Under the pieces are notes generated by a model, which saw nothing but the letters and a program-made list of their open reading frames with translations, had not been told where the DNA came from and did no database searches. From positions 26,175 to 90,174 of the forward strand of contig CAIKKG010000001.1 of NCBI GenBank assembly GCA_903827975.1: DNA of 64,000 bases, given 5' to 3'. Positions 4,703-46,437 of this stretch are shown here, piece by piece. This DNA is from an uncultured bacterium (GTDB lineage: Bacteria; Patescibacteriota; Minisyncoccia; UBA6257; GWB1-50-10). How positions within the stretch are numbered: position 1 is the first letter of the stretch; each line of letters opens with the position of its first letter. The position numbers were made by a program, and so were the translations under genes.

Positions 4703-4807
4703 ATCTTCCTAATAATGATAGTAAAATATGCTGAATTGCGCGAACGACCCCACTTTTGGTCAGTATGTTTGACAGCGTTTCAGCCACGCATATACTTATC
4801 TATGAAA

Positions 4808-4834
4808 TTAGCAATGGATAGTCGCCTTTGCTAA
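4808..4834 (+). promoter_or_regulatory. CIRCE-like HrcA operator variant upstream of groES (TTAGCAATG-N9-CTTTGCTAA)
   Basis: 9-N9-9 inverted repeat matching the CIRCE consensus TTAGCACTC-N9-GAGTGCTAA at 7 of 9 positions per arm; located 40 bp upstream of groES. Confidence 0.5.
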
Positions 4835-4872
4835 TAAAGACCACAAAAGTGGTCTCAATAAATTAAAATCAT

Positions 4873-5178
4873 ATGAAATTAAAACCACTATTTAATCGCG
4901 TGCTTATTGAGGCGGTATCAGATGAGGCAAAGGCCACAAAATCAGGGATAGTGCTACCAGATAGTGCTGAAAAGAAAAAGCAAAGCAAGGGCATTGTTGT
5001 GGCGGTTGGCGATGGGAGGTTAAGTGAAAAGGGTGAGCTTCAACCAATGAGTGTAAAAATAGGCGATAAGGTCCTATTTAAAGAACCATGGTCAGACGAA
5101 AGCAAGATTGAAGATAATGGTAAAAAACTTTTCTTGGTCGAAGAGGAAGACATATTAGCAACAATTATTGAGAATTAA
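4873..5178 (+). CDS. groES: co-chaperonin GroES
   Basis: MKLKPLFNRVLIE...GIVLPDSAEKK...GIVVAVGDG matches canonical GroES. Confidence 0.9.
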   Translation: MKLKPLFNRVLIEAVSDEAKATKSGIVLPDSAEKKKQSKGIVVAVGDGRLSEKGELQPMSVKIGDKVLFKEPWSDESKIEDNGKKLFLVEEEDILATIIEN

Positions 5179-5181
5179 ATT

Positions 5182-6819
5182 ATGGCAAAACAGATTTTAT
5201 TTAATGAGGAGGCGCGTATCGCAATGAAGAAGGGAATTGATAAACTTGCAGAGGCGGTAAAAATGACACTCGGTCCTCGCGGAAGAGCAGTTGTAATAGA
5301 AAAGGGATATGGAGCGCCACAAGTAACATTTGATGGAGTGACGGTTGCAAAAGAAATTGAGCTCGAAGATAAGTATGAAAATCTTGGTGCTGAGTTCATT
5401 AAACAAGCGGCAGACAAAACAAATGATAATGTAGGTGACGGAACAACAACATCTGTTGTTTTGGCACACGCAATGATAGAGGAGGGTGAGAAGGCAATTC
5501 GTGAAAAGGGGTTCAATGTAATAAGTCTTGCTGAAGAACTTAAAAAGGGAAGCAGTATTGTTATTAAAGCGTTAGAATCACAGAAGGAAGAAATAGACGA
5601 CAATAAAAAAATTCGCGAAGTTGCAACACTTTCAGCAAAAGATGCTGAGATTGGTTCACTTATTGCCGAGGTTATGGATAAGGTTGGGCGAGAGGGCGTT
5701 GTAACAGTTGAAGATTCAAATACGGTTGGAAATTCATACGAGCTTGTAGAGGGTATGCAGTTTAATAACGGATATATTTCTCAGTACATGGTCACAAATC
5801 AGGAGCGCATGGAGGCCTCACTTGATGAGCCGTATGTTCTAGTGACCGATAAAAAAATATCCTCAATACAGGAAATCTTGCCTGTTCTTGAAAAAATTGT
5901 TGCGAGTGGAAAAAAAGAACTTGTAATTATAGCTGAAGAAATTGACGGGGAGGCACTCGCCACACTGGTAGTAAATAAGATTCGTGGAATATTTAATGTA
6001 CTTGGCGTAAAAGCGCCTGGATATGGAGACCGTAAAAAAGAAATGTTACAGGACATTGCAGTTGTAACTGGAGCATCACTTATAACAGAAAGTCTTGGTA
6101 GGAAGTTCGAGAGCATTGAACTCTCTGATCTTGGCTCAGCACACAGAATTGTTTCTGAAAAAGATAAAACAACAATTGTCGGTGGTAGTGGAGAAAAGAA
6201 GGAGATTGATGAGCGCATTAAGCAATTAAAGGCGCAGATGAAGTCTGCCGATTCCGATTATGATAAAGAGAAGTTACAGGAGCGCCTTGGTAAGCTAGCA
6301 GGCGGTGTTGCTGTAATCAAAGTTGGTGCACCTACAGAATCTGCACAGAAGGAGCTGAAGCAGCGCGTTGATGATGCAGTTTTTGCAACAAAAGCAGCAA
6401 TGGAAGAGGGTATTATTCCAGGTGGAGGAATAGCACTTTTTAATGTTTTCTCATTAATTGAAAAAGCAGAAAAAAATTCAAACCCAGTCGCTGACGCAGC
6501 GCACATAATTCTTAAGCATGCTACCGAGGCACCGCTTATGGCGATCATAATGAATAGCGGAGAAAATCCAACAAAGGTTGTTGAGCAACTTAGTGCACGC
6601 ACAGAAAAAGATATTTGGAAAGGATTTAATGCATTCAAGAACGAGATTGATGATTTAAAGGCGGCCGGCATTATTGATCCACTTAAAGTTTCGAAGACGG
6701 CATTTATGAACGCGATCTCTGTAGCCGCAAACTATTTGACGATTGGAGCCGCAGTTACAGATATTCCAGAAAAGAAGGAAAAGACACAAGGAGGAATGCC
6801 TGGAATGGGTGATTACTAA
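5182..6819 (+). CDS. groEL: chaperonin GroEL
   Basis: MAKQILFNEEAR...GPRGR N-terminus, 545 aa, C-terminal GGMPGMGDY tail. Confidence 0.95.
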   Translation: MAKQILFNEEARIAMKKGIDKLAEAVKMTLGPRGRAVVIEKGYGAPQVTFDGVTVAKEIELEDKYENLGAEFIKQAADKTNDNVGDGTTTSVVLAHAMIEEGEKAIREKGFNVISLAEELKKGSSIVIKALESQKEEIDDNKKIREVATLSAKDAEIGSLIAEVMDKVGREGVVTVEDSNTVGNSYELVEGMQFNNGYISQYMVTNQERMEASLDEPYVLVTDKKISSIQEILPVLEKIVASGKKELVIIAEEIDGEALATLVVNKIRGIFNVLGVKAPGYGDRKKEMLQDIAVVTGASLITESLGRKFESIELSDLGSAHRIVSEKDKTTIVGGSGEKKEIDERIKQLKAQMKSADSDYDKEKLQERLGKLAGGVAVIKVGAPTESAQKELKQRVDDAVFATKAAMEEGIIPGGGIALFNVFSLIEKAEKNSNPVADAAHIILKHATEAPLMAIIMNSGENPTKVVEQLSARTEKDIWKGFNAFKNEIDDLKAAGIIDPLKVSKTAFMNAISVAANYLTIGAAVTDIPEKKEKTQGGMPGMGDY

Positions 6820-20942: not shown

Positions 20943-21782
20943 ATGATTAATATATTGAAGTGGTTTAAGCAATACATTATGGATGAGAGAGGGGGCTTTA
21001 CATTAGTTGAGCTTCTTCTTTATGCTGTAATTTTTGCAATTAGTTCGGTATTTCTTGTAAATATTCTGACATCCATAACACAGACAGAGGTAAGACAGAA
21101 TTCAATAAATGGCGTGAGTCAGCAGGTATCATTTGTTGCAGACACAATTCAGCGCATTGTGCGTCAGTCTAGTCTTATAGAAAATCCTGCGGGGGTTGCA
21201 AGCACAACGCTCGCTCTTCGTATGACCTCAACCTCGACAGACAGAACATCTATTTATATGGATGCTTCTTCAACCGGAATATTTTTGAAGCAGATTGATG
21301 CGAATGGTATTACAAATATAGTTCCTCTTACAGATAGCAGTGTTACGGTCGGAAATTTTTCAGTTACTAAATTCGAACCTGCTGGTGGCCAGGCGATAGT
21401 TAGGGTTGATTTAACATTGAATTACAATACGGCCGTTGAACGCGCAAAGGTTGCGCGAACCTGGAGCGGTGCAATTTCAAGAATATCCGCGGCAACTTTT
21501 GATTCAACTCTCACACCTAACTCCACAAACACGTACGACCTTGGAGGCTCTGGGTATCAGTGGAAGAACGGGTTTTTTTCAGGGAATGTTTCCATATCTG
21601 GAAACATAGGTCTTGGTGGAGCGGATCCTGCAGCAACAACGGCAAAGATTAAATCGAGTGGAGATATTATGGTAACGAACTCAGCATCTGGACTAATACT
21701 CACAGCATCCAACGGTTCATGTTTTAGAATAGGTGTTAGTACTGCTGGAGCGCTAACAACCTCAACTGTATCCTGTCCGTAA
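20943..21782 (+). CDS. type IV pilin/pseudopilin-like protein with an unusually long (17 aa) leader
   Basis: Prepilin cleavage/methylation motif G|FTLVELL (Glu at +5) followed by a hydrophobic helix. Confidence 0.65.
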   Translation: MINILKWFKQYIMDERGGFTLVELLLYAVIFAISSVFLVNILTSITQTEVRQNSINGVSQQVSFVADTIQRIVRQSSLIENPAGVASTTLALRMTSTSTDRTSIYMDASSTGIFLKQIDANGITNIVPLTDSSVTVGNFSVTKFEPAGGQAIVRVDLTLNYNTAVERAKVARTWSGAISRISAATFDSTLTPNSTNTYDLGGSGYQWKNGFFSGNVSISGNIGLGGADPAATTAKIKSSGDIMVTNSASGLILTASNGSCFRIGVSTAGALTTSTVSCP

Positions 21783-21794
21783 TAGAAGAAATAT

Positions 21795-21826
21795 AAAACC
21801 CCCGCATTACGCGGGGGGATTTTCAT
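21795..21826. terminator. bidirectional terminator between convergent genes (CCCCCGC-ATTAC-GCGGGGG)
   Basis: Perfect 7 bp GC stem with an A-run upstream and a T-run downstream. Confidence 0.6.
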
Positions 21827-22191
21827 TTAGTGAAGGCCCAGGCAACTAATCGAGAGCCAGATAGACTGAGGTTCGCAATCATTATCCCTGGGAGTAGTCC
21901 ACTAGCAGATTTTATCGATACGAATCCAATTATGCAAAATATGATGCCGAGAATTAATGATATGAATATGGCACCGAGTGAGATTATATCATCTGGTATA
22001 AGGCCGTCATCATTTATGTCGTAGACGGTAAAGAAGGCCTCAAGCCCGAAGAATATTGCGCCGAACGAAACTAAAAATATCGAGGCGGGACTTTGCATTT
22101 TCACAAAGGATGCAATAACGGCTGAAAGCATGCTTCCGGTCAAAAGCATAATCAGGGCTCCGAAGATCCTATTTTTCATGAACACGTGCAT
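21823..22191 (-). CDS. small polytopic membrane protein A (122 aa, 3-4 transmembrane helices), hypothetical
   Basis: Hydrophobic ORF with AAGGAGG RBS, its own promoter and terminator. Confidence 0.5.
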   Translation of the reverse strand: MHVFMKNRIFGALIMLLTGSMLSAVIASFVKMQSPASIFLVSFGAIFFGLEAFFTVYDINDDGLIPDDIISLGAIFISLILGIIFCIIGFVSIKSASGLLPGIMIANLSLSGSRLVAWAFTK

Positions 22192-22211
22192 TTAACACCT
22201 CCTTAAGGGCT

Positions 22212-22246
22212 GGCAGTAAATTAAACCATTTTTACGGTATTGTCAA
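22212..22246 (-). promoter_or_regulatory. sigma70-like promoter for membrane gene A (minus-strand TTGACA-17-TAATTT)
   Basis: Plus-strand TGTCAA at 22241-22246 and AAATTA at 22218-22223; consensus -35 with 17 bp spacer. Confidence 0.4.
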
Positions 22247-22254
22247 TGTGAGAC

Positions 22255-22292
22255 ATAAAAAATCCCCACACCATGATGCACAGTGTGGGATT
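22255..22292 (-). terminator. terminator of membrane gene B (hairpin CCCACAC...GTGTGGG followed by a T-run on the minus strand)
   Basis: 7 bp stem; the A-run on the plus strand is a T-run on the minus strand. Confidence 0.55.
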
Positions 22293-22295
22293 ATA

Positions 22296-22544
22296 TTATT
22301 TGCGCTCAAGTGATCTAAGTATTAGTAATGTAAAATATGCCACTACGGGCACCTCAGTCATACCAAGAAAGAAATTACTTGAGATAGCGCTTAATGTGAG
22401 ACCACCCAAAATTCCTGAGAAGATTGAGAATCCGATATTACGCTTATGCTCATTGAGGGTACCTCTTTTTTTGATAATGACTACCTCAGTAATGAAGAGA
22501 GCCAGGGCCAAAAAAGAGATTAGGAAAATGAGGAAATAAATCAT
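22296..22544 (-). CDS. small membrane protein B (82 aa, 2 transmembrane helices), hypothetical
   Basis: Hydrophobic ORF with AGGAGG RBS, its own promoter and terminator. Confidence 0.5.
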   Translation of the reverse strand: MIYFLIFLISFLALALFITEVVIIKKRGTLNEHKRNIGFSIFSGILGGLTLSAISSNFFLGMTEVPVVAYFTLLILRSLERK

Positions 22545-22574
22545 GTAGCACCTCCTATTTAAGTTGCTAAAAAT

Positions 22575-22603
22575 AAATTAAATTATATTTCAGATTCTGT
22601 CAA
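22575..22603 (-). promoter_or_regulatory. sigma70-like promoter for membrane gene B (TTGACA-17-TAATTT on the minus strand)
   Basis: Plus-strand TGTCAA at 22598-22603 and AAATTA at 22575-22580; same architecture as the gene A promoter. Confidence 0.45.
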
Positions 22604-22612
22604 TTAAGCGTG

Positions 22613-22652
22613 GTAAAAAAAGTCCCCACACCGCGCGTACGCAGTGTGGGGT
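22613..22652 (-). terminator. terminator of membrane gene C (CCCCACAC-N12-GTGTGGGG followed by T7 on the minus strand)
   Basis: Perfect 8 bp stem; same CCCCACAC arm sequence as the gene B terminator. Confidence 0.6.
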
Positions 22653-22660
22653 TGTTACCT

Positions 22661-23014
22661 CTACCTCTGGTCAACTGCCTCAAGAATGATGAGGCAAACG
22701 AGGGCGATCAGCGGCGCGATGCCGAATAATACCCACGTTTCCTGAAAGAGGGCTAGGAGCCCGCCACTTAGGACGCCCAGCAGGCTGGCAACTAATACTG
22801 CCCAGCCTGTGCCTTCTTGCGGCCTCTCCTTCACGAAGGAGGCAGACTCAACCACGAAGCCGGCAAGGCCGACTCCAGCAACAACTGCCAGCCAGGCAGC
22901 TGTAAATACTGTGGCGTGCATCACCAACGCGACGCACCAGATTGCTAGTGCTGTCGAGAATAAAACTACGGCGGTGGTGGCCATTCTTACTTGCGTTGCA
23001 AGTGAGTAAAGCAT
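22661..23014 (-). CDS. small polytopic membrane protein C (117 aa), hypothetical; GC-rich relative to its surroundings
   Basis: Hydrophobic ORF with Ala/Gly/Val-rich GC-rich codons, AAGGAG RBS, its own promoter and terminator. Confidence 0.5.
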   Translation of the reverse strand: MLYSLATQVRMATTAVVLFSTALAIWCVALVMHATVFTAAWLAVVAGVGLAGFVVESASFVKERPQEGTGWAVLVASLLGVLSGGLLALFQETWVLFGIAPLIALVCLIILEAVDQR

Positions 23015-23071
23015 TTTTCTTTCTCCTTTTTGGCGCAGATGCGCGTGGGTTGTTGTAAGGGAACTGGTATA

Positions 23072-23100
23072 ATTAAAACCTATTTATGCCATTTTGTCAA
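23072..23100 (-). promoter_or_regulatory. candidate promoter for membrane gene C (-35 TTGACA; weaker -10)
   Basis: Plus-strand TGTCAA at 23095-23100; AT-rich -10 candidates (TTTAAT/TAATTA) 17-19 bp downstream on the minus strand. Confidence 0.35.
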
Positions 23101-23150
23101 TAGGATACTTTCCGCTTAAAATGACAATAATACGCGGGTAAAGTGCTAAT

Positions 23151-23177
23151 TTAGCACTTGACTCGCATGAGTGCTAA
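23151..23177 (+). promoter_or_regulatory. CIRCE operator (TTAGCACTT-GACTCGCAT-GAGTGCTAA) for hrcA-grpE-dnaK, with an extra half-site GTGCTAA directly upstream
   Basis: 9-N9-9 inverted repeat closely matching the canonical CIRCE; it overlaps the GTG of the long ORF call, which supports the downstream ATG start for hrcA. Confidence 0.8.
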
Positions 23178-23194
23178 TTCTATACTTTACTCTG

Positions 23195-23905
23195 ATGAAG
23201 GATCGTACACGAGAAATTCTTGAATTTGCAGTTAAAGATTTCATAAGGGTCGGGAAGCCGATTACGTCGGAATATCTTTATGAACTGCACAATTTTGGTA
23301 TTAAGCCAGCAATGATTCGTTGGGAACTTAATGATTTATCAGAAAACGGATTTTTCTTCCAGACACATCCGTCAGGTGGTAGGTTTCCAACTAATAAAGC
23401 ATATCAGTTTTTTGTGAATGAGCTTCTTTCAAGTGAGAATGATGAGCAGTCCGCGGGTAGTGATTTAACCGATAGTTTTTTTGAAAATAATACAAAGGTG
23501 ATGGTTCATAGAATATCAGAATATCTTGAGGGGTTGAGCGTTGGGTATGACCTCTACTCTCATGAGGTTTATGGAAGTGGGTTAAATGATTTGTTGTCAC
23601 ATCTTGAAACAAACGCAAAAGAAGAGTTAGTAAATGTTGTTAAGGATTTTGAAATGTTAGAGGAAAGACTTCAGAAGAAGAGTGACTGGTGGAAAGGCGA
23701 GGAATTATGGCCGCGCGTTTTTATAGGGGAGAGTCCTGTTACAAAAAGTGAACATCTTTCGGTTGTTGTCGGAAGATATTTTTGTGAGGGTAGGGATGTA
23801 TTACTTTTTTCAATTGGGCCAACTAGGATGGATTATAAAAAGTCAGTCAACCTATTCAAAACATTTACAAAGTCGCGAACAGAAAAGCAGAAGAAACAAA
23901 AATAA
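23195..23905 (+). CDS. hrcA: heat-inducible transcription repressor HrcA
   Basis: N-terminal wHTH (REILEFAVKDFIRVGKPITSEYL); heads a grpE-dnaK operon and is preceded by CIRCE. Start placed at ATG 23195 rather than GTG 23171. Confidence 0.8.
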   Translation: MKDRTREILEFAVKDFIRVGKPITSEYLYELHNFGIKPAMIRWELNDLSENGFFFQTHPSGGRFPTNKAYQFFVNELLSSENDEQSAGSDLTDSFFENNTKVMVHRISEYLEGLSVGYDLYSHEVYGSGLNDLLSHLETNAKEELVNVVKDFEMLEERLQKKSDWWKGEELWPRVFIGESPVTKSEHLSVVVGRYFCEGRDVLLFSIGPTRMDYKKSVNLFKTFTKSRTEKQKKQK

Positions 23906-24421: not shown

Positions 24422-26317
24422 ATGGCAAAAATTTTAGGAATTGATCTCGGTACAACAAATTCAGCAATGTCAGTAATGGACGGTGGAGAGCCTACGGTAT
24501 TAGAAAATCAGGAGGGGAATAGAACAACACCATCTATTGTCGCGATGAGTAAGACGAATGAACGTCTCTCTGGGCTTTTAGCAAAGCGTCAGGCTGTTGT
24601 TAATCCAAAGAATACAATATTCTCAGTTAAGCGCTTAATAGGAAGAAAGTTTAGTGATGTGGAGGTTCAGCGCGACAGTAAATGGCTTCCGTACGAGATT
24701 AAGGAATCTGCGTCGGGGGGCGTAGACGTAAAAATGGGTGATAGGTGGTACACACCAGAAGAAATCTCATCAATGATTTTGCAGAAGCTTAAGGCTGATG
24801 CGGAGGCAAAGTTGGGTGAGAAAATAGATGAGGTAGTTATTACAGTGCCTGCCTATTTTGATGATAGCGAGAGACAGGCAACAAAAAACGCTGGTGAGAT
24901 TGCCGGATTCAAAGTGCGTCGAATTATCAATGAGCCGACTGCGGCTGCATTCGCATACGGAGCAAATAAAATGAAGAATGAGAAGATTGCAGTTTATGAT
25001 TTCGGTGGTGGCACATTTGATATTTCAGTTTTAGAAATTGGATATGATGCGGAGTCAAAAGAACAGACGGTTGAGGTTCGCGCGACTGGTGGAGATACAC
25101 ATCTCGGCGGTGATGATCTTGATAAGCGCGTAATCGATTATTTGGTCTCCGAATATAAGAAGCAGGAAGGAATAGATGTATCAAAGGATCCTCTTGCTAC
25201 GCAAAGATTAAAAGAGGCTGCGGAGCGCGCAAAGCATGAGCTCTCAACATCTCTCGAGACTGAGATTAACATTCCGTATATTACTTCAGATGCTACAGGG
25301 CCGAAGCACTTCCTAATAAAACTTACCCGCGCAAAATTAGAAGATCTTGTGCGCGATCTTATTGACCGCTCCATAGAACTTGTTAAAGAGGCGGTTACAG
25401 CGCAAGCCCCAAAGGGTGCTGGTATGAAACTAGAGGATATAAATGAGATTCTACTTGTTGGCGGACAGACAAGAATGCCAGCGATTCAGGAGGCTGTTAA
25501 AAATTTATTTGGTAAGGAGCCCCACAAAGGAATTAATCCTGATGAAGTAGTTGCAATGGGAGCATCAATTCAAGCGGGCATTCTTCAGGGAGATGTAAAA
25601 GACATTCTTCTTCTTGATGTGACTCCATTATCTCTTAGCATTGAAACCATGGGTGGCGTTGCTACGCCGATGATTCAGAAGAATACAACAATGCCTACGG
25701 CAAAGACTCAGGTCTTCTCAACGGCGGCAGACAATCAGACCTCAGTAGAGATTCATATTGGTCAGGGAGAGCGACCAATGATGGCGGATAACAAAACACT
25801 CGCACGTTTTATTTTGGATGGAATTCCACCATCTCCACGCGGAATGCCGCAAGTTGAGGTTACATTTGATATTGATGCAAATGGAATTTTGAGTGTTTCT
25901 GCAAAAGATAAAGCATCTGGAAAATCACAATCAGTAAAGATTGAGGCATCAACAAGTCTTAATAAAGAAGAGATTGAAAGATTGAAGCAGGAGGCTGCAG
26001 CGCATGCAGCAGAAGATGAGAAGCGTCGAATAATTATTGAGATAAAAAATCAGGCGGAATCTATGATTTACGTTTCTGAAAAAGGAGTTCGCGATGCTGG
26101 AGAAAAGGTACCAGCCGAATTAAAAGAGAGTATAGAAAAGAAAATTGCTACACTAAAGGAGGTAAAAGAAAAAGATGATGCGGATGCAATTAAAAATGCA
26201 ACGCAGGATCTTTCTGCAGAGCTTCAAAAGATCGGCGAAATAATGTATAAAGATAATAAGGAGACACCTGCCGCAGGTGAGCCAAAAGATGCGGGCGAGG
26301 AACAGGGGACACAATAA
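24422..26317 (+). CDS. dnaK: molecular chaperone DnaK (Hsp70)
   Basis: [17 protein letters not shown] and other Hsp70 signatures; 631 aa. Confidence 0.95.
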
Positions 26318-26318
26318 A

Positions 26319-27362
26319 ATGAATTTTAACGAGACATCAATAGATAGACAATCAAAAGTAGAGGAGGTTGATTTTAGTGCTCTAAAAATATTGATACTCA
26401 CGTTTCTTTCTGTCGCAGCCAGCATGGCAATGATATATGAGTTCAGCGCATTCTCAATATCATTAAATTATTTGTCTTTGTGGCTCGGACTTTCAGCACT
26501 CTTCATATTTACAGTCCTAAACATATTGAATGCATTCTTTATCAAGCACATTTCTATGTTAGCTGGAATTGCATTTCTTGAAACATGTCTTCCTATCGTG
26601 TTTTATCCTAATCAGATATTTTCTATAAACATGGTTGGATTTCTATTGTTTTTTGCATTTGTATTGTACGGATTACTCGCAGGCCGAAATCATTTGATGA
26701 ACAGTATAAAGATTAGGTTCTTTTCAGTTGTAAGCTTAATAACACCAAAGATAGTTACTGGCGCATTAATTTGCATGAGTATGCTATTTTTTACGAACTG
26801 CCTCTCTTATGGAAATGGAGTCTGCACTGAAAGCTTTGGTAAGAGTATCGTGAATAATGCATTAGATGCGTCGACACCAATTGTTAATATTTGGATTCCA
26901 GGTGTTTCGGCTGATCAGACAGTAAGCGATTTTTTTAACAGTTTTGCAATTTCCCAAATGAGCAAGGTAAAACTTGGAGATGGATTTCCTGAAAATATTA
27001 ACCTAAGTACCGGCATTTCTGAAATTCCTAAATTATTGCGTGAAAAAATAATAAATAAATTTTCAAGCGATATAAGGAGTGCGTTTGAACAAACGACTGG
27101 ACCATTAGACTCAAATAAAAGTGTTAAGAGCGAGGTATTCAGAATTATCTCGGAATATGTGAAGAAGTTTTCAGATAAAACAAAGGCAATAGCATCTATT
27201 GGTCTAGCCGTTCTAATTTTCTTTTCACTTAAAGGAATTGCATTCCTAACTTATTGGTTGGTAAATCTGGTCGCGTTTCTAGTATATAAACTATTAATTG
27301 CAGCTAATTTTGCCGTAGTTAATTATGAAACACGAAACAGAGAGTTTGTAATTCTACCGTAA
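26319..27362 (+). CDS. uncharacterised polytopic membrane protein encoded between dnaK and dnaJ
   Basis: 347 aa; 4-5 N-terminal transmembrane helices, a soluble middle region and a C-terminal transmembrane pair. Likely start is the ATG at 26319, directly after the dnaK stop. Confidence 0.5.
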   Translation: MNFNETSIDRQSKVEEVDFSALKILILTFLSVAASMAMIYEFSAFSISLNYLSLWLGLSALFIFTVLNILNAFFIKHISMLAGIAFLETCLPIVFYPNQIFSINMVGFLLFFAFVLYGLLAGRNHLMNSIKIRFFSVVSLITPKIVTGALICMSMLFFTNCLSYGNGVCTESFGKSIVNNALDASTPIVNIWIPGVSADQTVSDFFNSFAISQMSKVKLGDGFPENINLSTGISEIPKLLREKIINKFSSDIRSAFEQTTGPLDSNKSVKSEVFRIISEYVKKFSDKTKAIASIGLAVLIFFSLKGIAFLTYWLVNLVAFLVYKLLIAANFAVVNYETRNREFVILP

Positions 27363-31696: not shown

Positions 31697-31940
31697 AAAT
31701 ATATTAAATAATTATTCAATTATATCAGTAGCTCACGTTTACTGCTAATTAATTTCCACACGTAGTAACATAATTTTTATTATTTTAAGCCAATCTCCCT
31801 CTATCTAATCGAGGTGGGGAAGGGTAATAAAGAACAAATAGAAGATTTATCAAAATACGATTGTGCATAACTTCCTGAAACCTAAAAAATACGTAGTAAA
31901 TAAAGGGTTAATTAGGCATTTTATATCTTATCTGGTGTTT

Positions 31941-31968
31941 TTGACTGCATTTCGCCTGGTGGTATACT
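31941..31968 (+). promoter_or_regulatory. mraZ promoter (TTGACT-16-TGgTATACT, extended -10)
   Basis: Near-consensus sigma70 elements about 80 bp upstream of mraZ. Confidence 0.5.
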
Positions 31969-32040
31969 GATGTGGAGATGTGGGGCAAAGTGGATAAACG
32001 TGTGGATAAGCCCTGATTCTGGGGATAAGTAGCTAAAAAC
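31969..32040 (+). promoter_or_regulatory. direct GTGG[A/G] repeats (candidate MraZ binding boxes) between the promoter and mraZ
   Basis: GTGGAGAT / GTGGGGCAAA / GTGGATAAAC / GTGTGGATAA / TGGGGATAA spaced about 10 bp apart. MraZ is known to bind GTGGG-like direct repeats. Confidence 0.35.
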
Positions 32041-32047
32041 AACGACA

Positions 32048-32479
32048 ATGTTATTAGGAGAATTCAAACATAACGTAGATGAAAAGAATCGCCTGGCAGT
32101 TCCAGCGAAGTTTCGTGAGCTATTTACTAATGGCGCTATTGTTACGCGTGGTTTAGACCACTGTCTTTTTGTTTTTAGTTTGCATGAGTGGGAAAATCTG
32201 GCTAATAAACTTATTGCACTTCCGCTAGCACAGGCAAATTCACGTGCATTTGCGCGACTCATGCTTGCAGGCGCAACAGACGTGAAGGTTGATGTTCAGG
32301 GTAGAATCCTCGTACCAGACTATCTCCGCAAATACGCGGGGCTAAAAAAACAAGTGGTTGTAGCAGGTCTGTATAACCGCCTTGAAATCTGGGATGCGGA
32401 TAAGTGGGAAGAGTATAAAGCGAAAACAGAATCCGCGTCGGATGAAATCGCTGAAAAGCTCGGCGAGTTAGGAATTTAG
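32048..32479 (+). CDS. mraZ: division/cell-wall cluster transcriptional regulator MraZ
   Basis: MLLGEFKHNVDEKNRLAVPAKFRE and a duplicated DXXXR-like MraZ fold; heads the rsmH-ftsL-ftsI-murF cluster. Confidence 0.85.
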   Translation: MLLGEFKHNVDEKNRLAVPAKFRELFTNGAIVTRGLDHCLFVFSLHEWENLANKLIALPLAQANSRAFARLMLAGATDVKVDVQGRILVPDYLRKYAGLKKQVVVAGLYNRLEIWDADKWEEYKAKTESASDEIAEKLGELGI

Positions 32480-41243: not shown

Positions 41244-43319
41244 ATGAACTCAAGAAGCAAAGCAGGATTCACATTGGTTGAACTCCTTATTGTAATCGCA
41301 ATTCTCGCAATACTTTCGGTCGCGGCAATCTTAGTTATAAACCCAGCACAACTCCTAAAGCAGGGAAGAGATGCCACTCGTCTATCTGATATGGCTGCTC
41401 TTAACTCAGCTCTCGCGCTTTACAATACTGACGCAGCTAACGGTTTCATGGGAACTTCAACGTATATTTATGTTTCAATTCCTGACTCCAGTCCAACGTG
41501 TGCAAATCTCGGTCTACCAACACTTCCAAGTGGTCAGTACAGTTGTGTTGCCTCCTCAACTCTCAGAAAGACTGATGGCACGGGATGGGTTCCTGTGAAT
41601 TTCAGTAGTCTAACATTTGGAAATCCATTACCGAATCTCCCTATCGATCCAATTAACGCAACTTCAACTGGAACATACTACACATACGCAGGAGGAAGCT
41701 GGGCCCTTTCTGCTGTTATGGAATCCACCAAGCAGGCCGTTGTAATGGCATCTGACGGAGGACGAAGTGCATACGCATATGAGGTTGGCTCTAATCTTAC
41801 GCTTACTCCAACATCAACACTTAGAAGGGCGATGCCAGTTGTTGCTCTTACAATAAACGCACCAGCACTTACAACATCAAAGGTGTATGACGGAAACACA
41901 TCTGCTGTGGTTGCTGCTGGCACACTTTCCGGAGTTGCAAGTGGAGATGTGGTTACAGTGTCTGCAACTGCAACTTATAATTCAGCTACAATCGAAACAG
42001 GAAAAACAATCACGGTTGTATATACGCTCGGAGGAGCTGACGCCGCTCAATATTCAGCTCCAACAAATTATGTTGTAAATACGGGCGCAATTACAACCGT
42101 TCAGTTATCAATAGGTAATCCAACAATTACAACATCAAAGACATATGACAGGACTACGTCCGCCGGGGTTACTGCTAGCACGCTTTCTGGAGTTGCTAAC
42201 GGTAATACAGTTACGGTGTCCGCAACTGCAACGTATGATTCAGCATCTGTTGGCACAGGAAAAACAATAACCGTTGTATACACATTGGGAGGTGCAAATG
42301 CATCGAATTATACGGCTCCAACAAATTATGTTGTTAATACTGGAGTTGTTTCAGCCATAGAACTACAAATAGGTAGCCCAACGGTCACAACATCAAAGAC
42401 ATATGATGGCACAAAATCCGCTGCGGTCACTGCTGGTTCACTCACGGGAGTTATTAGTGGTGACACGGTTACAGTATCCGCAACCGCAACATATGATTCA
42501 GCATCTGTTGGAACTGGAAAAACAATAACCGTTGAATATACATTGAGCGGAGCGAGTTCTGGAAATTATTCAGCTCCAGGAAATTATATTTTGAATACTG
42601 GAATAATAGTTTCAAATATTGCTAACACAACTTGTAAGGCAATTTTGGATGCTGGTTCTTCTACTGGTAGCGGCGTCTATACAATAGATCCGAATGGAGG
42701 TTCGAATGCTGACGCATTTCAGGCGTATTGCGATATGACTACTGATGGCGGTGGATGGGCGCTTGTGGCATTACCAACTGATTCGTACAGCATTTTTAGT
42801 GAGCCAACGGGTCTTCTCGATCCTACGGCATCGCTTGGAGCAAGAAATTCAAATTATTGGAGCTCGGGTTCAACAAATACATTTACTCAGATTAGATTTA
42901 CTGACTCTTGGCCTTCTCGCTCGTATTATGATATCGCGACGTTTGGTTCAGCTGTATCAATGTCGAGTCTCATGACTTCCTACCCAACATATTCTCAGTA
43001 TCCAGTAGCAACAACAAATATATCATCAAGTATTGGGTCAACATGCTTCATAGTTAGGGGGAAGAGTTCCGCTGATATGCAATGGAGTGACGGAGCCGAT
43101 TGGTTATTTATGGGATTCCATTCTCTTTGTTCGGTGCCAATATCCAATACAGATGCTTGGGATGTGTACAGTTACTCCAATCAGTGGGTGGTAGGCGCGA
43201 GAGATAACAGTGGCGATCCACAAAGTAACCCAACGGCTGTCGGGCGCATGACGGGCGGTTGTCATTGGAACGCAAATTCCTGTCCAGCAACAAATAGAAC
43301 CATAATCTGGGTTAGATAA
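41244..43319 (+). CDS. large type IV pilin-like protein with three tandem YDG-type (MBG-like) repeats and a C-terminal fibrinogen-related domain; candidate pilus-tip adhesin
   Basis: Prepilin motif KAG|FTLVELLIVIAILAIL; three about 82 aa repeats (TTSKVYDGNTSA...TITVVYTLGGA...YSAPTNYVVNTG); C-terminus GVYTIDPNGGSNADAFQAYCDMTTDGGGWALVA matches the fibrinogen C-terminal domain signature. Confidence 0.6.
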   Translation: MNSRSKAGFTLVELLIVIAILAILSVAAILVINPAQLLKQGRDATRLSDMAALNSALALYNTDAANGFMGTSTYIYVSIPDSSPTCANLGLPTLPSGQYSCVASSTLRKTDGTGWVPVNFSSLTFGNPLPNLPIDPINATSTGTYYTYAGGSWALSAVMESTKQAVVMASDGGRSAYAYEVGSNLTLTPTSTLRRAMPVVALTINAPALTTSKVYDGNTSAVVAAGTLSGVASGDVVTVSATATYNSATIETGKTITVVYTLGGADAAQYSAPTNYVVNTGAITTVQLSIGNPTITTSKTYDRTTSAGVTASTLSGVANGNTVTVSATATYDSASVGTGKTITVVYTLGGANASNYTAPTNYVVNTGVVSAIELQIGSPTVTTSKTYDGTKSAAVTAGSLTGVISGDTVTVSATATYDSASVGTGKTITVEYTLSGASSGNYSAPGNYILNTGIIVSNIANTTCKAILDAGSSTGSGVYTIDPNGGSNADAFQAYCDMTTDGGGWALVALPTDSYSIFSEPTGLLDPTASLGARNSNYWSSGSTNTFTQIRFTDSWPSRSYYDIATFGSAVSMSSLMTSYPTYSQYPVATTNISSSIGSTCFIVRGKSSADMQWSDGADWLFMGFHSLCSVPISNTDAWDVYSYSNQWVVGARDNSGDPQSNPTAVGRMTGGCHWNANSCPATNRTIIWVR
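41862..42600 (+). repeat. three tandem about 246 bp coding repeats inside the pilin-like gene
   Basis: Near-identical protein repeat units visible in the translation (aa about 207-452). Confidence 0.6.
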
Positions 43320-46056: not shown

Positions 46057-46437
46057 TTAAACACGGTTCCTATTGCCGTGACCATCGGCCTCATAGATAT
46101 AGGCGAGGGTCGCGACAACCGAAACCGTCACGAAAACCAAGAGGAAGATTGCTCCGTGGAGCCCATAGAGATGACCAGTTGTCACCTCAAAGAACCCAAC
46201 GAAGCTTAAGAGAAAGGCGATAAAGGCCGATGCCCTCATCTTCTCGATCCCCACTTGGTATGAGACAACCAGTAGCAGGCCAATTATAATGCCTGCGTCT
46301 GGACTGTGCGTGATTTCACCAACCCCATTCCTGAGGTGGTGAAACATTGAGTATGTCAGGCCTATGGTGAGACCCATAAGCGGGCCAGCCCCGAGGGCCA
46401 GAACTATTCCGGCCAGCATCTGCCTTAAGTTACTCAT
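46057..46437 (-). CDS. small polytopic membrane protein (126 aa), hypothetical; GC-rich relative to its surroundings
   Basis: 4 predicted transmembrane helices; GC-rich codon usage; its own strong promoter and an AAGGAG RBS. Confidence 0.5.
   Translation of the reverse strand: MSNLRQMLAGIVLALGAGPLMGLTIGLTYSMFHHLRNGVGEITHSPDAGIIIGLLLVVSYQVGIEKMRASAFIAFLLSFVGFFEVTTGHLYGLHGAIFLLVFVTVSVVATLAYIYEADGHGNRNRV

Follow-up and report, generated by a model that had tools for sequence, protein, structure and literature searches.

Three small genes for hydrophobic proteins lie head-to-tail on the minus strand of a contig (CAIKKG010000001.1) from Candidatus Jorgensenbacteria, of the candidate phyla radiation (CPR, or Patescibacteria), where they stand between a pilin-like gene and hrcA. 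The window analysed is a 64,000-nucleotide stretch of this contig, and positions are those of the window. Gene A (21823-22191) encodes 122 amino acids (aa), gene B (22296-22544) 82 aa and gene C (22661-23014) 117 aa from its first ATG, which bears out the three minus-strand open reading frames (ORFs) that an initial annotation, made from the letters alone, had placed here. The segment that holds them, 21783-23150 (1.4 kb), is best read, with moderate confidence, as a lineage-specific insert of three autonomous cassettes that encode orphan membrane proteins and whose expression signals spread by duplication of a short module.

The two intergenic modules, one between genes C and B (22545-22660) and the other between B and A (22192-22295), align end to end at about 70% identity with a z score of about 15 against shuffled sequences, and the alignment spans hairpin, T-run, -35 box, -10 box and Shine-Dalgarno (SD) site. 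The promoter and 5′ untranslated region (5′UTR) of gene C are also homologous to those of gene A, with a z of 6.9 for the C upstream region against the B-to-A module. No copy of the hairpin motif of the modules occurs outside the trio, either in the window or in the loci of other species. The coding regions are a different matter: A, B, C and a look-alike gene elsewhere in the window, gene D, show no significant mutual similarity by BLASTP, shuffled Smith-Waterman, DNA-level or frame-shifted comparison, and paralogy among the four was rejected on the non-significance of all the protein, DNA and frame-shifted results. With modules about 70% identical and ORFs that lack similarity, it is the expression signals that appear to have been duplicated and not the genes. 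On this comparison the architecture common to the cassettes is attributable to duplication of a module of about 105-116 bp and not to convergence, and the ORFs of the trio would be either unrelated or diverged far faster than their flanks.

That A, B and C are nevertheless paralogues, the whole cassette having been tandem-duplicated twice and the ORFs having diverged beyond recognition while gene conversion or selection kept the modules alike, is rather unlikely. It would account for the homology of the intergenic modules and for the three products all being small multi-helix membrane proteins, and gene A does evolve very fast, having about 31% identity over 42 residues to its counterpart in a relative whose HrcA is 81% identical. 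The sole hint among the ORFs comes from B and C, whose final 39 residues align marginally (p about 0.03), up to the C-terminus of each protein and next to the homologous modules. The absence of significant similarity between ORFs whose modules have remained about 70% identical speaks against paralogy, as do the strongly different lengths (122, 82 and 117 aa) and GC contents (42%, 37% and 56% for A, B and C), and gene C is under purifying selection with no runaway divergence.

Under the favoured reading of a copied module, each cassette would be monocistronic, with a sigma-70-type promoter, a short 5′UTR, a strong SD site, a small ORF and a strong intrinsic terminator. For gene A, the B-to-A module supplies a -35 box TTGACA at 22246-22241, a -10 box TAATTT at 22223-22218 and the SD site AAGGAGG at 22204-22198, following the terminator of gene B; for gene B, the C-to-B module supplies TTGACA at 22603-22598, TAATTT at 22580-22575 and AGGAGG at 22556-22551, following the terminator of gene C. 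The promoter and 5′UTR of gene C (23015-23100) contain TTGACA at 23100-23095 and a weak -10 box, TTTAAT (23077-23072); further on come a small hairpin, GCGCatctGCGC (23044-23033), and the SD site, AAGGAG (23028-23023). All of these elements are on the minus strand. The spacing between the boxes is 17 nucleotides (nt) in each promoter and the -35 box is perfect in all three cassettes. TTGACA-17-TAATTT is indeed present for A and B, as had been noted, but to call these promoters near-consensus overstates the case, since their -10 boxes match TATAAT at only three of six positions, keeping -12T, -11A and -7T. Sites of the form TTGACA-N16-18-TAnnnT number eight in the window against 2.7 expected; promoter-like sites overall are not commoner than in shuffled sequence. 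The SD sites stand 6-8 nt from the first ATG of each gene, so that the strong SD sites of the initial annotation are upheld.

The terminator hairpins of A, B and C, at 21799-21817, 22264-22290 and 22624-22651, lie 5-9 nt past the stop codons and have stems of 8-12 pairs followed by T-runs of 4, 6 and 7 respectively, so that each is a G+C-rich stem-loop with a T-run just after a stop codon, as expected of an intrinsic terminator. They are the top three of 21 terminator-like sites in a 14-kb scan, where shuffles predict 9.9 sites, and a stricter scan found about eight strong terminator hairpins in the whole window, three of them in the trio. The B and C terminators have the arms CCCACACTG...GGTGTGGGGA in common, with the first base of the B arm being T in the window and C in other strains; a dedicated hairpin for each gene, two with a common arm, had already been recognized. 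The terminator of gene A, CCCCCGCGTAATGCGGGGG, has a T-run on each strand and is bidirectional, closing both gene A and the convergent plus-strand pilin-like gene (20943-21782), which carries an N_methyl motif. This cassette anatomy supports the earlier description of the genes as self-contained and atypical for the genome.

The insertion itself is read from synteny. Gene order around the trio is serS, two unknown genes, the pilin-like gene, the trio and hrcA-grpE-dnaK, and the trio with its context is intact in all the strain-level contigs fetched, which derive from metagenome-assembled genomes (MAGs) of Jorgensenbacteria (L001, L002 and L020-L024); at the strain level it is present as a unit. 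A scan for HrcA with one genome per species gave 16 loci with HrcA identities of 81-44%. In six of these (L004, L005, L006, L008, L011 and L017) the pilin-like gene points the same way as hrcA, ends 30-320 bp before it and is directly followed by the CIRCE element (controlling inverted repeat of chaperone expression), and none of the six has a divergent small membrane ORF at the pilin-hrcA junction. Only L003, with HrcA 81% identical, has at this junction a single minus-strand hydrophobic ORF of 128 aa (5484-5870 of its locus), equipped with a TTGACA-17-TATAAT promoter, an AAGGAGG site and a CCCCCGC...GCGGGGG hairpin that is orthologous to the A terminator (z = 9.5). The 42-residue match between its product and that of gene A falls at matching positions and includes a common LE.F..YD motif, and the L003 ORF is probably the positional orthologue of A. 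The trio is thus restricted to a species-level group, with one cassette in L003. Since the pilin-like gene of these six relatives adjoins CIRCE and hrcA, and only L003 has a cassette between them, 21783-23150 is inferred to be a lineage-specific insertion.

As to how the present arrangement could have come about, the ancestral state would have had hardly anything between the pilin-like gene and the hrcA promoter embedded in CIRCE. The A cassette and its bidirectional terminator would already have been in the common ancestor with L003, the nearest sampled species, and the B and C cassettes would be later arrivals between A and hrcA, with expression signals that came from the copying of one terminator-promoter-SD module and not from the copying of genes.

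The same junction holds unrelated insertions of 0.8-4.6 kb in three further relatives. That in L013 (5186-6000, 0.8 kb) has no clear gene, that in L014 (4125-6000) encodes a 596-aa protein with an N-terminal hydrophobic segment, and that in L016 (1418-6000, 4.6 kb) has some six unrelated ORFs. Judging by these cases, insertions seem to have recurred at this junction.

Gene C is the compositional outlier of the trio. It has 56.2% GC in a window of 40.2% (z = +4.3) and a GC content at third codon positions (GC3) of 0.61 (z = +4.1) among 59 window genes whose GC3 averages 0.35 with a standard deviation of 0.064. The initial annotation had it as a GC-rich outlier in a region of about 36% GC, and the outlier stands at z = +4, with the background corrected to 40.2%. 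The further claim, that foreignness is confined to the third gene, is too restrictive. The frequency of C at codon position 3 (C3) is 0.34 for C, 0.34 for D, 0.32 for A and 0.26 for B, the top four of the 59 genes, against a mean of 0.146 and a standard deviation of 0.056. As A, B and C are all among the four highest, the codon anomaly is common to the whole trio and is most extreme in C. Strand bias and hydrophobicity were considered as causes of the C3 excess and dismissed, as C3 is normal in other minus-strand genes and in other hydrophobic proteins, as it also is in the ribosomal-protein gene rplL.

One member of the background deserves mention in its own right. The 113-aa minus-strand ORF of the mechanical list at 31921-32262 overlaps a 143-aa ORF on the opposite strand (32048-32479) and is not called in the L001 MAG, where mraZ matches the 143-aa ORF by size and by position upstream of an Nramp gene; the 113-aa ORF is probably a shadow ORF that slightly inflates the background of the codon statistics.

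Composition raises the prospect that gene C alone was recently imported from a GC-rich donor, perhaps a host bacterium or a mobile element, and has yet to be ameliorated. This is doubtful, though it retains some weight: the GC and GC3 values are as expected of such an import, C is absent from L003 and from all other relatives, and the junction has taken different insertions in other lineages. What counts against it is that no homologue was found among 5.8 billion protein clusters, among 1.84 billion representative proteins searched with HMMER, or among metagenome and viral contigs, plasmids and phages; that the annotated flanks, which reach about 10 kb to each side of the trio, contain no called integrase or transposase, and no tRNA gene or flanking repeat is near it; that the C promoter is a copy of the resident A promoter; and that the C3 bias extends to A and B. 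The alleles of C also bear on this. There are two haplotypes, at a synonymous divergence (dS) of about 1.2, and both are GC3-rich (0.57 and 0.71), which argues against a one-off unameliorated import and would call for repeated imports or long-term maintenance. The simple, recent horizontal acquisition of C proposed initially is accordingly not demonstrated, there being no donor, no mobility genes and two GC3-rich alleles.

Judged as an acquired islet, then, the block is absent from sister lineages at a conserved syntenic junction and atypical in composition, while no donor or homologue elsewhere was found, nor any mobility gene in the annotated flanks or border scar, the repeated hairpin motif being confined to the trio. 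Two outcomes named in advance as speaking against the initial annotation, the assignment of the proteins to housekeeping families in a conserved operon context and a GC content of gene C within gene-to-gene variance, did not come to pass, and by synteny the block is a lineage-specific addition.

The strain-level variation in gene C is informative in other respects. A 3.9-kb comparison of L002 with the window shows 93 differences, of which 65 fall within 22600-23199, which comprises C, its 5′UTR and its promoter. The hot spot of polymorphism is at about 23060-22845, covering the 5′UTR and the first 40-62 codons, and the surrounding DNA is about 100% identical. Across codons 1-62, dS is about 1.2 and the ratio of nonsynonymous to synonymous divergence (dN/dS) about 0.15, with 33 of 57 differences at codon position 3; on this substitution pattern gene C is protein-coding and under purifying selection. 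Synonymous changes are found in codons 1-10 as well, which places the start of C at the first ATG (23014, giving 117 aa) and not at the MAG-annotated start that gives 107 aa. The divergent tract ends at different points in L002 and in L021 and L022, the latter two also having a 4-bp deletion between the SD site of C and the first ATG. From these end points the alleles of C are taken to be mosaic, arising by recombination with a diverged, unsampled copy.

Two other explanations for the variability and composition of C were set aside. A diversity-generating retroelement acting on its 5′ half is discounted by changes that are mostly synonymous, at third positions, of all types and not adenine-specific. 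A structured RNA in place of a gene (RNase P RNA, tmRNA, 6S RNA or an intron fragment) is discounted by the codon-periodic substitutions and by the absence of any match: Rfam, at the gathering score and at E<=10, has no family over the region, and ARAGORN finds no tmRNA.

For A and B such a substitution test has no power, because these genes and the modules are about 100% identical among strains. It might then be asked whether A, B or both are chance ORFs in non-coding spacer, with the hairpins and boxes serving some other end such as insulation of hrcA from the pilin-like gene. The near-invariance among sampled strains would fit, and gene callers disagree on the start of A (93, 108, 118 or 122 aa). 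This is highly improbable. Both have a canonical SD site 6 nt from the first ATG, each exactly fills the space from promoter to terminator, both are strongly hydrophobic with segments of helix length, and both have the C3-rich codon usage of C. In addition, L003 keeps an ORF of the size, orientation and position of A despite near-total sequence turnover.

The products are best described as orphan, putative integral membrane proteins of 3-4 helices. AlphaFold2 gives four helices each for A and C, with low confidence; A has an acidic loop, YDINDDGLIPDD, and B has two to three hydrophobic helices and a basic loop, KKRGTLNEHKRN. The two to four transmembrane helices without recognizable motifs of the initial annotation are in line with this, inasmuch as the products are hydrophobic and match no family. 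Pfam, NCBIfam, PHROGs and PADLOC give no significant family match for any of the three, and a sequence search of the PDB gave none. A shared-word search of the 5.8 billion protein clusters recovered only near-identical relatives, annotated as hypothetical proteins of Candidatus Jorgensenbacteria MAGs, and all three genes are ORFans. When the C alignment was run in full with HMMER against the 1.84 billion representatives, it matched C alone, apart from spurious hits to three repeat or pentatricopeptide-repeat (PPR) proteins, and searches of metagenome contigs, viral contigs, plasmids and phages (tblastn) gave only self or near-identical matches. Nothing specific to the locus was found in the literature. 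The only PHROG hit is that of B to phrog_19590, of function unknown, at E = 0.0098 and covering one helix. A holin or phage lysis cassette, holin-like proteins being among the initial suggestions, finds no support: there is no significant PHROG match, no match to the trio by tblastn among 50,697 phage records, and the neighbouring genes are cellular.

As for what such proteins might do, a tentative suggestion is that they are accessory proteins of the envelope, dispensable and quick to evolve, with a part in strain-level interactions, by immunity-type protection or by modulation of the cell surface. Small size, the absence of catalytic or transport motifs, rapid turnover, strain mosaicism and accessory distribution favour envelope accessory or immunity-type roles, and the same traits count against the products being housekeeping components, transporters, holins or type I toxins. 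Transporters or housekeeping components they probably are not. The functions named initially (transporter, holin, immunity or stress protein) are guesses.

Several considerations weigh against the favoured reading of an insert of autonomous membrane-protein cassettes. The -10 boxes are weak, that of C worst, its best candidate TTTAAT lacking the -11 A, and transcription as three separate RNAs and the use of these promoters are predicted from sequence only. The AlphaFold2 models have mean confidence values (pLDDT) of 58 for C and 54 for A, and Foldseek against the PDB returns only generic four-helix or helical bundles at E>3, so that no conclusion was drawn from the models. A resembles the L003 ORF only marginally, with 43 of 2000 shuffles reaching the score and a pairwise E of 0.005. 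A and B are near-invariant among strains, and it is SD spacing, conservation of the ORFs and the counterpart in L003 that speak for their being coding. Lastly, no feature of the sequence indicates a particular biochemical role, and the annotated flanks have no cognate toxin, transporter or phage gene near the trio.

Gene D, at 46057-46437 on the minus strand between miaA and gatB, merits comparison with the trio. It encodes a hydrophobic protein of 126 aa with about four hydrophobic segments as read from the sequence, has 52% GC and a GC3 of 0.61, and comes with a TTGACA-17-TAGATT promoter, an SD site and a strong terminator of its own. Eight strain variants keep the ORF, one of them with an in-frame two-codon indel, and D has no Rfam match. 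What D and C further have in common is the predicted folding of their coding RNA. The z score for fold stability of D is -8.3 against dinucleotide shuffles and -8.0 against synonymous-codon shuffles, and the corresponding values are -3.9 and -4.2 for C, -1.7 and -2.5 for B, and +0.45 and +0.09 for A. Ranked against 111 background gene segments (mean -0.53, standard deviation 1.3), D is first, C third and B sixth. The excess in C is mainly in its invariant 3′ half (z = -3.6) and is present in all alleles; the RNAalifold covariation term is negligible at -0.69, with two effective alleles. The excess fold stability of C is no proof of RNA-level function.

Stable folds of this kind could be taken as a sign that the products are membrane-damaging peptides resembling type I toxins or holins, whose expression is held back by the strong structure of their mRNAs. 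Small hydrophobic proteins, monocistronic units and strong terminators would go with this, as would the folds of C (z about -4) and D (z of -7 to -8). It is very unlikely all the same. Type I toxins are typically smaller than these products of 82-122 aa with three to four helices. There is no promoter-like site on the plus strand between 21823 and 23014, the SD sites are set in A-rich stretches that, as read from the letters, look unpaired, and neither endolysin or phage genes nor a PHROG match were found. Excess RNA structure is lacking in A, and C is only third among the 111.

A more far-reaching proposal, speculative and judged improbable, is that C and D, and to a lesser degree A and B, represent a distinct CPR class of four-helix membrane proteins with C3- and GC-rich, stably folded mRNAs and a copied adaptor, the composition being kept by RNA-level selection or repeated import and the module being an integrase-free scaffold for capturing ORFs. 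Were it so, either RNA-level selection on very stable or dual-function mRNAs, or a GC-richer partner such as a host, would be maintaining the composition, and the copied module would be capturing and expressing new ORFs without an integrase.

The proximity of the trio to hrcA invites the thought of joint regulation. The initial annotation had placed the cluster upstream of, and divergent from, a CIRCE-controlled hrcA operon; the position and the CIRCE element are confirmed, and the link goes no further than position. CIRCE (23151-23177, plus strand) differs from the consensus at one position, has no second copy in the window and forms the right boundary of the insertion. The hrcA promoter is embedded in it, with a -35 box TTGACT at 23158-23163 inside CIRCE and a -10 box TATACT at 23181-23186, also on the plus strand, and the arrangement TTAGCAC-TTGACT-...-GTGCTAA-N3-TATACT is conserved across eight related species. 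The hrcA promoter is about 58 bp from the -35 box of C, and CIRCE is at least 51 bp upstream of that box. Because CIRCE overlaps the hrcA promoter and is outside and upstream of the C promoter, the link between trio and hrcA is, to go by this layout, positional only; membership of the trio in an HrcA/CIRCE regulon is not indicated, with CIRCE outside the C promoter and no copy at A or B. A second candidate for the hrcA promoter, TTGTCA-17-TAAAAT (23094-23122), which would overlap the -35 box of C, was rejected as relatives place the conserved hrcA promoter inside CIRCE. The start of hrcA is probably the ATG at 23195 (236 aa), and not the GTG at 23171 of the mechanical ORF list.

Other features of the window can be mentioned in passing. 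The groES and groEL genes (4769-6819, confirmed by Pfam) have a TTGACA-16-TATACT promoter, and no CIRCE within three mismatches is near them. Between dnaK and dnaJ, in the heat-shock operon, there is a hydrophobic ORF of 361 aa (26277-27362) without a Pfam family, for which the L001 MAG has a gene call of 347 aa. A further pilin-like protein, of 691 aa (41244-43319), combines an N-terminal methylation motif with three YDG domains and a brief segment similar to a fibrinogen/collagen C-terminal domain, and the GC content at second codon positions of its gene is unusually high (GC2 0.56).

Small membrane proteins without annotation abound in CPR bacteria, and the origin and expression of orphan genes are poorly documented. 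The locus provides a clean and datable example, since empty, one-cassette and three-cassette states are all sampled. With the module copied, the ORFs unrelated and C under purifying selection, it shows that orphan genes can acquire copied on/off signals, and apart from its use as a case study it offers candidates for strong promoters and terminators to be used as parts in Patescibacteria, though by itself it settles no open question.

Comparison with known systems helps to place the trio. Like an integron cassette array, it is a tandem row of short ORFs that are unrelated and point the same way, with an imperfect inverted repeat after each one and a sequence repeated between them. Unlike those of integrons, the hairpins here carry T-runs, making them intrinsic terminators and not attC sites, and each cassette has its own promoter and SD site; attC sites, an adjacent intI and promoterless cassettes are all lacking, no integrase being called in the annotated flanks, where the neighbours are housekeeping genes with no recombinase among them. 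Typical type I toxins are under 60 aa with one helix. The trio resembles them in being made up of monocistronic hydrophobic ORFs with strong terminators and, for C, an unusually stable predicted mRNA, but its products have 82-122 aa and three to four helices, their SD sites are not visibly sequestered, and the trio does not qualify as a type I toxin-antitoxin system, no antisense promoter being predicted within the trio. Bacteriocin or toxin immunity arrays are similar in having tandem small multi-helix membrane proteins with their own promoters, and the allelic mosaicism of C and the accessory distribution add to the likeness; they differ in that here no toxin, bacteriocin precursor, ABC exporter or secretion-system gene is adjacent and the proteins have no similarity to immunity families.

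Lineage-specific ORFan genes for small membrane proteins, and accessory islets, are commonly reported in CPR/Patescibacteria. The trio is like such islets in its short hydrophobic ORFs of no family, its confinement to one species-level lineage, its variable junction and its atypical codons. It is unlike them in that its expression signals were copied as a module, in having no mobility genes and in the old mosaic alleles of C that are under purifying selection. The locus is a tidy instance of orphan-gene accretion in a CPR genome, and not a new kind of system or mechanism.

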